Assembly (NCBI GenBank): GCA_965541585.1
Contig: CBEUCH010000022.1
Span: 1-43,300 of the forward strand
DNA from: an uncultured bacterium
GTDB lineage: Bacteria; Zixibacteria; MSB-5A5; UBA10806
Reading direction: 5' to 3'
DNA: 43,300 nt
The first letter of the stretch is position 1, and each line of letters starts with the position of its first letter. Under the pieces are notes generated by a model. That model had not been told where the DNA came from. It searched no databases and saw nothing but the letters and a program-made list of their open reading frames with translations. The translations under genes and the position numbers were made by a program. Positions 11,102 through 12,886 of this stretch are shown in pieces.

Positions 11102-12886
11102 TCACGATCGACTACAGGACGAGCAGTTCTCTGTTCGATGTAGGTTTAGCTGATTACGCCGTCTTCGAAGTTCATCGCAAAGATGGGCACGGCTACTCCA
11201 CATTGCTTCACCGATAGCTACTGCTGCCGCGTCCTTAGGGTCATCTGTCCACCGACCAGGCTGTACAACACCAGCGGCGAAATGGAGAACCCATGACCTG
11301 AGGTTGCCTGCCCTACCAATCCAGCCAAAGTGTATATTGCCAGGTACATCGTAGTTAAAACACATGCCACACATCGTAACGGTTAGATCACAGTCGGTCG
11401 TCGGACATTTACGTCCAGCGCTCGCCCGCCACCACTTCTGATTGCTCTTGAAGTCCCAAGGGCCTCCCCGGCGGACCAGTAATGCAAATGCGCGGAGAGC
11501 GGCAGCCGTCCATCCAATGTTAAGGAATGGAACATACCGAGGCCATTTAGTCTGCATTTTCTTAATGACCGGGTGGTTGCGGTTGGTATTCATTTGATTA
11601 ATCAACCACTGCGTGATGTCAGGGCCGCAGTGCCTACGGGTGACCTTAACATCTTCTGCGGGGAAGGTGAATTCTTGGCGAAATTCTATCATGACTCCCC
11701 GATTCTTGGCCCGATTCGCAACACTATTATTATCGGTATTGGTTACATACTCGCCTAAGCCTTTCATGCCCCGAAAGGTCACCCGAGAATGCGCGCCTAG
11801 TCCCAGTAACCTCTCAACCCGTTCCGCCCGGCCGTGGCGCAGATGTGTATTAAGCCTGTCGTTTCCAACACAGTCGCTATAACCAATGATACGCAACCGA
11901 TAAGAATCGTCGGATTCGAAGGTACTCAGCCAGGACTTCAACAATGGCTCATTCTGAGTGGAACGTTTTACACTGCGCCAATTAACACCAAAGTCGGAAA
12001 TTAACAGGTAGCCGGGTGCGTGTAAGGTCACGTCAGGGCTTACGTGTCCCGTAGAGGTTCGCGAAGTCCGTACCTCGCCCGGTTCATAGCCTGGACAGTC
12101 GGCTTTATCCGACGGCATGCTTTGGAGGCGTCCGGTCAGGCCCTTCTGCTGCACCACATGCGCCAACTCATGCCCCAGTAGTTTCTTTGTCCCGGTGGTT
12201 CCGGGTGAATACTGTCCCGCTCCGAACACGACGTTTTTTCCTAATGTAAATGCCCTTGCATTAACCGACCGCGTGGCTTCAGCGGCTTGTGAACCTGTAT
12301 GCACCCTCACGCCGCTGAAGTCATGGCCGAATCTCGGCTCGAAGAAATTGCGCACCGAACGGGGCAAAGGCCGGCCGCCGCCTTTCATGGAATTAATTCG
12401 AGCCTGCAAACCGGGTCCAACATGAGCGGTTTGTCCGCTTGCTTGCTTGGCCTGTATCGGTTCTTCCTCCTCCTCCTCCTCGGGCTCAACCTGCCTCTGT
12501 ATCAAAGGAGTAATTGCTTCGGCTATCGGCTTTGGTTGGATCGTTTCCTCTTCGGTTTCCATATCCCCGCACGAGGGACCATTTGCGAATGGTCACGTCG
12601 GTTTTCGCTGGATTGTCGGGTCCGGCATCCGCATCACCTGCTCGGCGACACGATCCGCTTCCTGCTCGTATTTGTCGTTAGGCTGACCTATCTTGAGCTT
12701 CGGTTGGATGGCAGGCGCGCACCGAGGACAGCCTCCTTCGCAGGGGCAACTCGTCGCGGTCTGAATTATCGGCGCCGGGGATGTATAATAGGCCCTCTGC
12801 GGAGCATCTGAAGGGATATTAGTACGCCCGCGCGCGCTCCGACTTTCCTTTTCCGAAGACCGTTTATGAACAGCGATAGATGACAT
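11102..12886 (-). CDS. eCIS cargo toxin (leader + DUF4157 + OmpA-like + Ntox44-like RNase) with in-frame UGA at codon 98, candidate selenocysteine
   Basis: ORFs 12593..12886 and 11102..12562 are in the same frame, separated only by TGA at 12593-12595, and the joined protein is collinear with paralog 7637..9733. Motifs: HELAHVVQQ (DUF4157); IIGYSDCVG..N..L..GRA..V and NRAKNRGV (OmpA); WDFK, GNIHFG, DDPKD (Ntox44-like). Confidence 0.8.
12559..12595 (-). promoter_or_regulatory. UGA plus putative bacterial SECIS-like stem-loop
   Basis: UGA CCAU UCGCAAAUG GUCCC U C GUGC G GGGAU AUGG: lower stem CCAU/AUGG, upper stem GUCCC/GGGAU, bulged U, apical loop starting GU 20 nt after UGA (folded by eye). 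Confidence 0.5.

Follow-up and report, generated by a model that had tools for sequence, protein, structure and literature searches.

An in-frame UGA as candidate selenocysteine codon in the leader of a DUF4157 cargo toxin at a contractile injection system locus

The stretch of DNA analyzed here, hereafter referred to as the window, comprises 43,300 nt (positions 1 to 43,300 of contig CBEUCH010000022.1, assembly GCA_965541585.1) from an uncultured bacterium of the Zixibacteria, and encodes a complete operon for an extracellular contractile injection system (eCIS). At the 3' end of this operon sits a cargo gene with an in-frame TGA at codon 98. Judged by its sequence, the gene product is a DUF4157 / eCIS_core cargo of the eCIS in every feature by which such cargos were assessed. 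The UGA is very probably decoded, and we consider it a genuine selenocysteine (Sec) site, U98-x7-C106, located in the loading leader of the cargo toxin, with a probability of roughly 0.7. This reading is carried by the conservation of the UGA in homologs, a reading frame that continues into DUF4157, a hairpin conserved at the nucleotide level directly after the codon, and the presence of Sec machinery in the host.

Translation of the minus strand at 12886..11102 gave a single frame of 594 codons and a terminal stop, the sole internal stop being the TGA at 12595..12593 (-), as had been stated in the initial annotation of the window. The reading around the internal stop is ...MRMPDPTIQRKPT-stop-PFANGPSCGDMETEEETIQPKPIAE..., or ...MRMPDPTIQRKPT-stop-PFANGPSCGDMETEEE... 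over a longer local stretch. Gene calling with translation table 11 splits the gene into two open reading frames (ORFs) of 97 aa (12886..12593) and 486 aa (12562..11102). As the gene itself terminates with TGA (11104..11102), this codon is not reassigned in the organism. A strong Shine-Dalgarno sequence had been claimed for the first ATG, and GGGAGGAGG is indeed found 12 nt upstream, while the internal ATG at 12562 has no more than a GGGGA in front of it, at a spacing of 1 nt. The coordinates of the gene, its parts and its surroundings are collected in Table 1.

Homologous DNA was searched with the pattern K-P-T-x-P-x3-G-P-S-C-G-D/E, leaving the codon at the UGA column free. Metagenome contigs yielded 11 matches, of which ten were true leaders (nine TGA and one TGG) and one was an out-of-context chance match, and genome contigs yielded five, comprising three chance matches and two true leaders, both TGA, from one NC10 metagenome-assembled genome (MAG) and one MAG titled only "Bacterium". 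Stop-tolerant searches of whole genomes added three TGA genes (L044, L063, L067), one TGG gene (L055) and one TGC gene (L058); L044 is a neighbour of the TGA gene already found in the NC10 genome, and three Planctomycetota genomes account for two TGA genes, one TGG and one TGC. In total, the column in this leader subtype holds TGA in 15 of 18 DNA sequences, TGG in two and TGC in one, with neither TAA nor TAG among them. The 18 sequences derive from five genomes in at least three phyla and from metagenome contigs, and 15 rows are distinct, as are 12 of the TGA rows because four TGA sequences show no difference in the 42 nt compared. The residues of the DNA pattern overlap the hairpin described below, so the pattern samples the subtype having this element; the Planctomycetota cases and L044 come from protein searches and are free of this bias. 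The TGA-type leaders are diverged, with a median nucleotide identity of 71% across the 75 nt upstream of the stop, and are followed by different C-terminal domains. The nucleotide after the UGA is a C in 15 of 15 TGA forms.

The initial annotation had proposed that homologs of a recoded gene should retain UGA rather than UAA or UAG, and this is the pattern observed: the UGA is not private to the window's genome, being present in sequences from independent assemblies, and the three stop codons are not used interchangeably at the column. Decay of an effector gene through mutation of a Cys, Trp or Leu codon to a stop, or an error in sequencing or assembly, could in principle also place a TGA at this position, as TGY, TGG and TTA each differ from TGA by a single nucleotide and the corresponding residues occur at the column in relatives. 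Furthermore, no reads of the window organism itself were located; the sequencing runs listed include no RNA run and only two DNA runs, with small shares (0.06 and 0.04). Contigs of relatives (80% likeness) that span the site differ synonymously at 12584 and 12587, and among the changes listed for them none lies at 12593-12595, which is not counted as evidence here. Against such an origin stand the 15 TGA sequences with their diverged leaders and different C-terminal domains, the intact downstream frames and the conserved hairpin, which together make a pseudogene or an error extremely improbable; a sequencing error at the TGA can be regarded as excluded, by conservation rather than by reads.

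Downstream of the stop, the DUF4157 motif or HExxH was found in the leader frame in 10 of the 11 TGA loci having at least 98 aa of downstream sequence, and in no locus in another frame; the remaining locus (L024) has 133 downstream residues and no DUF4157 motif by regular expression. From the stop to DUF4157, the intervening sequence (..IQTKP..ITPLVQRQ..) is kept at the protein level, with synonymous differences, and matches the translated linker of uninterrupted leaders. This also bears on the possibility that the UGA is a true stop separating two products, a 97-aa peptide and a DUF4157 toxin made by termination and reinitiation, with the hairpin coupling or regulating the two. In the window an ATG does lie 11 codons past the stop, the locus is annotated as two ORFs, and hundreds of similar short ORFs have been called in public data. 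In five loci, however, DUF4157 has already begun before the first in-frame ATG is reached (with ATG taken as the start codon), all 10 informative loci have the downstream domain in the leader frame and in no other, and homologs with a sense codon at the column are single continuous proteins. The protein-level conservation of the intervening stretch, homologous as it is to translated leaders, also argues against separate products, and a toxin started downstream would lack the N-terminal loading region as described in excerpts of the AlgoCIS preprint (bioRxiv 10.64898/2026.05.27.728243). Two products from this locus are thus considered highly unlikely, and neither a pseudogene, a sequencing error nor two independent genes can explain the conservation and the in-frame continuation together.

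A hairpin, UCCCU-CGUGY-GGGGA, starts 15 nt past the UGA, with its apical loop 19 nt downstream. Numbering the U of the UGA as 1, the stem is formed by U18-A32, C19-G31, C20-G30, C21-G29 and U22.G28, and the loop by C23 G24 U25 G26 Y27 (C27 in the window). The nucleotides after the UGA are near-frozen, following TGA CCN ... GGT CCC TCG TGY GGG GA. Among the first 14 sequences, Gly+5 is encoded by GGT in 14/14, Pro+6 by CCC in 13/14, Ser+7 by TCG in 13/13 and Gly+9 by GGG in 14/14, while four different codons occur at each of the Pro, Ala and Arg positions upstream that are conserved to the same degree. For codon pairs encoding the same amino acid in the TGA forms, the identical fraction was 0.80 in codons +5..+9 versus 0.44 in the 25 upstream codons. 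The apical stem is fully paired in all TGA forms, and the changes observed in it preserve pairing (C21->U in L028, U22->C in L044 and L067, G28->A in L063), including a compensatory change of C19-G31 to U19-A31 in L067, the only double change. In the sole TGC form the stem is interrupted midway by a C.A mismatch (-2.7 kcal/mol), which, as a single case, fits relaxed constraint after loss of the UGA.

In E. coli fdhF, the Sec insertion sequence (SECIS) presents G23 and U24 and has a bulged U17. A similar two-part stem with a bulged U and a GU loop about 20 nt downstream had been suggested for the window; the GU-loop hairpin is found at this distance and is conserved, but the outer CCAU/AUGG stem and the bulged U are not. 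The suggestion that a competing hairpin (GACCAUU/AAUGGUC) can sequester the UGA is borne out in that it is the dominant local structure in folding, with only its 4-bp core, GACC/GGUC, being conserved. The lower and apical stems compete in part, as nucleotides 18-19 are common to both. According to excerpts of a recent review (PMC13188914), the consensus bacterial SECIS (bSECIS) has an apical loop of 3-9 nt, an upper stem of 4-16 bp, 16-37 nt between UGA and loop, a G in the first two loop positions that is usually followed by G or U, and a minimum free energy (MFE) of at most -7.5 kcal/mol. The hairpin found here agrees with these quoted rules in its loop (5 nt), stem (5 bp), G24 U25 at loop positions 2-3 and spacing (19 nt), and is borderline for the quoted energy limit (PMC13188914), which is reached only when the lower GACC/GGUC helix or the flanks are counted. 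The consensus fold of UGA..+36 has -8.3 kcal/mol, and 60-nt windows have -9.0 to -17.6 kcal/mol.

The genome of the host (G000, 98% complete) encodes tRNA-Sec, selD, selA and selB within 12 kb of its contig C11, so that the four genes (selA/selB/selC/selD) looked for on the basis of the initial annotation are all present. They lie at ~66.8-77.1 kb, with tRNA-Sec at 66866-66957, selD at 72796-73734, selA at 74067-75131 and selB near 76892 (L001, L009-L011). The tRNA-Sec scored 75.6 bits and was called SeC with anticodon TCA by ARAGORN, and the host selD has an in-frame TGA of its own at 72826 (..AACAG-stop-ASK..). Two hairpins follow the selD TGA, the second of which has the loop GUC (CCAGGUCCUGG) and lies ~33 nt downstream. 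Across the TGA-bearing genomes, tRNA-Sec and SelA were found in 5/5 and SelB-wing_3 in 4/5.

If the codon is read as proposed, a ribosome arriving at the UGA-C would encounter SelB carrying Sec-tRNA(Sec) bound to the hairpin, whose loop CGUGY (G24 U25) starts 19 nt past the UGA. Sec would be inserted, and translation would proceed into DUF4157, the OmpA-like part and Ntox44 to give a 594-residue protein with U98-x7-C106. Failed decoding would release a leader-only peptide of 97 residues. The identity of the inserted residue as Sec and the binding of SelB to the hairpin are here inferred, and residue 98 may have a redox, metal or regulatory role.

The residues found at the column in relatives without the UGA were compared in a MAFFT alignment of the best 120 full-length matches together with the query and the uninterrupted paralog from the window. 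The column is C in 21 rows, which mostly belong to a CxxC subtype (..AG-C-SS-C-GD). P0093 has Cys at the column, KPTCPFANGPSCG (KPT-C-PFANGPSCG), with flanks identical to those of the window's protein, and Cys is also found in P0072, P0094 and P0033; a protein search with residues 84-130 only returned a single protein, P0243, with Ser. The anticipated presence of Cys in homologs was thus seen in these four proteins with Cys and in the TGC form L058, though Cys is not the rule, as L, W, S and F occur as well. With the exception of Phe, the residues at the column can be encoded by one mutation from TGA, which fits a repeated loss of an ancestral UGA and suggests that residue chemistry at this position may not be essential to the protein.

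For the Cys-form homolog P0072, the AlphaFold2 model had a mean predicted local distance difference test (pLDDT) of 57.5, with 90-97 in the DUF4157 core and ~90 in the YEQEADRVA helix. The conserved leader block YEQEADRVADEVMRM (window ~12632-12676 (-)) is a confident helix in this model (pLDDT ~90), the remaining leader being unmodelled. As this helix scores as high as the DUF4157 core, the block may belong structurally to the DUF4157 fold instead of being a free signal. About 40 residues before the UGA, the leader has a four-Cys motif, (S/T)CPC(E/D)GGCPRC, at 12713-12751 (-), which is kept in P0001, P0004 and L021. Together with U98 and C106 this makes six thiol/selenol positions in a supposedly disordered leader, for which a metal site is possible from the sequence. 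A "cysteine-switch" docking on HExxH, by analogy to metalloprotease pro-peptides, found no support in the model, where C-x7-C is unmodelled, and is speculation.

Several observations weigh against a Sec site. In the narrow subtype with the window's spacing, the column in 14 full-length proteins holds L in six, W in three, C in three, F in one and S in one. Sec usually occurs in redox active sites, and so mixed a set of sense residues is unusual for a catalytic Sec site. The C-x7-C segment of P0072 was unmodelled by AlphaFold2 (pLDDT 47-59). Both TGG forms retain a hairpin, and since the Cys106 codon lies inside the loop, its conservation could be RNA-driven. Covariation, which had been proposed as a check, was not significant (57-69 of 500 shuffles equalled the observed scores, with 96% of cells paired), the element being too conserved for covariation to be testable in this way. 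Folding of single sequences was no better than that of shuffles (z -0.93, -0.03 and +0.61), making the evidence for the hairpin comparative rather than thermodynamic, and the hairpin alone has unremarkable energies of -4.4 to -9.2 kcal/mol. A permissive Rfam scan of 12300-12900 gave no SECIS family and two chance-level matches (E 4.1 and 9.6). SelB-wing_3 was not found in one TGA-bearing genome, G758. Finally, the Sec machinery is necessary but not discriminating, since SelA is present in 148/151, 136/151 (a tally including one unpublished genome, G361) and 111/151 sampled genomes of the three phyla concerned (74-98%), and co-occurrence with the machinery was rejected as a discriminator for this reason.

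Some of these points would also suit a programmed readthrough independent of Sec, in which UGA-C and the hairpin slow termination and a near-cognate tRNA (Trp, Cys or Arg) yields a fixed product ratio. The invariant C after the UGA, sense relatives with W, L, S or C and not Cys alone, the two TGG (Trp) forms with a hairpin, and the location of the site in a model-disordered region instead of an enzyme active site are all in line with it. We know of no established bacterial mechanism in which a hairpin stimulates UGA readthrough, which counts against this explanation, and tRNA-Sec and SelA are found in every TGA-bearing genome examined. Moreover, the hairpin is conserved in sequence including its loop, not in stability alone, which points to recognition by a specific factor, and both loop and spacing agree with the rules for bacterial SECIS elements as excerpted from PMC13188914. 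We therefore regard such readthrough as unlikely.

A different emphasis, which we hold to be possible although less likely than not, is that the UGA and hairpin mainly constitute a translational gate, where SelB, Sec-tRNA and selenium would set the ratio of leader peptide to full-length toxin. The 97-residue peptide might then pass into the injection tube or block it, or might act by titrating the loading ATPase. With the identity of residue 98 being secondary under such a gate, lineages that lost the UGA would have taken the nearest sense codon (Leu, Trp, Ser or Cys).

The 97-aa leader is widespread: the protein database contains 252 short ORFs resembling it (53-170 aa, E <= 1e-5). Among the best 120 of these, 94 end exactly at the UGA column, the final residues being, for example, ..KPT, ..KPG or ..APT; this count is taken from protein ends alone, in which the stop codon that follows is not visible. 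Some of the short ORFs belong to NCBI MAGs with the labels Nitrospirota, Aminicenantes and Ca. Loosdrechtia, in which they carry the name "hypothetical protein". Close to the host the leader is rare, being found in 2/61 relatives and 4/285 genomes of the phylum, and none of the leader matches in these genomes was of the UGA subtype outside the window's own gene. In 251 NC10 genomes the UGA subtype was restricted to G061, and a match with an internal TAA in another NC10 genome (G404) has a different arrangement, the TAA being the true gene end. No leader match was obtained in 401 genomes of Verrucomicrobiota or, by tblastn, in plasmids. Viral contigs gave no match to the column-free pattern, and a single match to a hairpin pattern (L053) occurred by chance. 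The UGA-type cargo genes are often paired in one locus, as seen for L043/L044 (G061 C8, at 623.7 and 627.2 kb), L025/L026 (on one 39.7-kb contig) and L018/L019 (on one 1.7-kb contig), and in G758 the UGA-type L063 and the TGG-type L055 lie ~7 kb apart on one contig.

Table 1 Features of the recoded cargo gene and its eCIS locus, in window coordinates.
Feature	Position	Strand	Description and basis
Whole recoded gene	11102..12886	-	Leader, DUF4157, OmpA-like part and Ntox44 (translation; Pfam; weak NCBIfam)
Leader before UGA, 97 codons	12596..12886	-	Holds CPCEGGCPRC motif and conserved LKIGQPNDKYEQEADRVAEQVMRMP block
In-frame UGA, codon 98, next nt C; proposed selenocysteine codon	12593..12595	-	Homolog column
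Cys106 codon UGC, eight codons past UGA, in hairpin loop	12569..12571	-	TGY in 18/18 sequences
Candidate SECIS apical hairpin	12564..12578	-	Conserved fold in TGA forms; fits bSECIS rules as quoted from PMC13188914
Lower hairpin GACCAUU/AAUGGUC, overlapping GA of UGA	12577..12594	-	MFE; alifold; 95% of cells paired, one double change
DUF4157 / eCIS_core, HExxH (LGHELAHVVQQ)	12140..12370	-	PF13699, E 4e-32, residues 65-141 of the 486-aa ORF
OmpA-like, peptidoglycan-binding-like segment	11684..11992	-	NCBIfam, residues 299-401 of P0002, every match under family cut-off; PDB 6jfw E 0.009
Ntox44 C-terminal toxin domain	11210..11488	-	PF15607, E 1e-07, 32.7 bits vs cut-off 24
Shine-Dalgarno-like GGGAGGAGG	12899..12907	-	Before ATG at 12886; read from sequence
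eCIS structural genes, same orientation, upstream	23013..36999	-	Sheath, gp19 tube, Pvc16_N, AAA ATPase, spike (Phage_base_V), DUF4280, gp25, Baseplate_J
Second cargo gene (P0001, 698 aa)	7637..9733	-	Same leader family and DUF4157; acidic linker replaces UGA/Cys insert

The second cargo protein of the window, P0001, is the uninterrupted paralog to which both sides of the stop had been claimed to align collinearly. This was upheld by the alignment both before the stop (IQPKLKIGQPNDKYEQEADRVA..MRMP) and after it (Q.KPIA..ITPL.QRQ.EPEE..PIQAK), except for an insert of ~10 residues with the stop and Cys, which is absent from P0001. The C-terminal ~400 residues of P0001 are very basic and have no Pfam match, and could represent a toxin domain not yet described. 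The two cargo genes are separated by an Amidase_3 gene (N-acetylmuramoyl-L-alanine amidase; 10725..10192 (-)) and an ORF of 101 aa (10043..9738 (-)) with a weak match to DUF1360, which by their predicted products could be a lysis pair for release of eCIS particles. Upstream of the recoded gene, 12920-13774 (-) encodes a 284-aa protein with a helix-hairpin-helix motif below the Pfam cut-off, and 13780-17718 (-) a 1312-aa DUF6519/beta-helix protein that may be a tail fibre. At 835-5328 (-) the locus is flanked by genes for three surface-type proteins, of which two have BNR repeats and IPTL-CTERM sorting tails and the third has a Por_Secre_tail (type IX secretion).

When compared to selenoprotein genes with a SECIS inside the ORF (model case E. 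coli fdhF; bSECIS model as excerpted from PMC13188914), the gene is similar in its UGA-C, the small hairpin within the coding sequence and the loop with G then U, as well as in a spacing of 19 nt within the 16-37 nt range, Cys in some homologs and the presence of selA/selB/selC/selD. It differs in that the site is in a disordered toxin loading leader with no recognisable oxidoreductase active site, in that Leu, Trp or Ser replace the codon as often as Cys does, and in that the hairpin is almost invariant across phyla and has no conserved bulged U. Among injection system cargos, the closest likeness is to AlgoCIS Cgo1/Cgo2 and the DUF4157 eCIS toxins, with which the protein shares a disordered N-terminus, DUF4157 with HExxH, a variable C-terminal toxin and a gene position at the 3' end of the eCIS operon. 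In the portion available of the AlgoCIS preprint (bioRxiv 10.64898/2026.05.27.728243), the disordered N-terminal region of the cargo is needed for tube loading and DUF4157 is dispensable; the UGA would by this comparison lie within what is presumed to be the loading signal. In excerpts of Geller et al. 2021 (PMC8213781), DUF4157 is described as an eCIS marker whose role is unknown. Where these two sources cover them, Cgo1/Cgo2 and the DUF4157 toxins are by contrast described as ordinary ORFs, with no UGA or selenocysteine (bioRxiv 10.64898/2026.05.27.728243; PMC8213781).

A selenobacteriocin (TIGR04081) is listed among prokaryotic selenoproteins in the excerpted review (PMC13188914), being by name a Sec-containing bacteriocin and an indication that selenoproteins are not only enzymes. 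It is, as far as these excerpts describe it, a small bacteriocin-type peptide with an SGUG motif, differing from the present cargo in having no sequence relation and no link to DUF4157 or contractile injection. No selenoprotein model in NCBIfam release 20 matches the read-through protein or its leader, and the passages searched of the 2026 prokaryotic selenoproteome review (PMC13188914) make no mention of PF13699, peptidase, toxin, injection or HExxH. Nowhere in the literature searched do DUF4157 and selenocysteine, or "contractile injection" and selenoprotein, occur together, and texts pairing "eCIS" with selenocysteine were unrelated word matches by their titles or passages. The claim that no selenoprotein eCIS effector has been described is thus in agreement with both NCBIfam release 20 and this literature; SECIS recoding is known, and the family and setting found here appear undescribed.

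If the Sec site is genuine, it would add a widespread selenoprotein family in the toxin loading leaders of phage-tail-like injection particles. Public data contain at least 94, and probably more than 200, orphan leader-only ORFs of ~97 aa ending at the UGA column, and the 15 TGA loci seen at the DNA level indicate that such a leader ORF and an N-terminally truncated DUF4157 protein make up one gene, for which reason ORF-based effector catalogues and toxin predictors misdescribe these cargos. Where N-terminal leaders are reused for protein delivery, some would hold a recoded UGA, and translation in ordinary expression hosts would end there. That a disordered leader should have a Sec, freely swapped for Leu, Trp or Ser, further raises the question of what it serves, be it redox or metal chemistry, formation of a selenenylsulfide together with Cys106, or translational control. 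Should the UGA and hairpin act mainly as a translational gate, the arming of a contractile injection system would be subject to a selenium-dependent checkpoint, with a SECIS kept for regulation.

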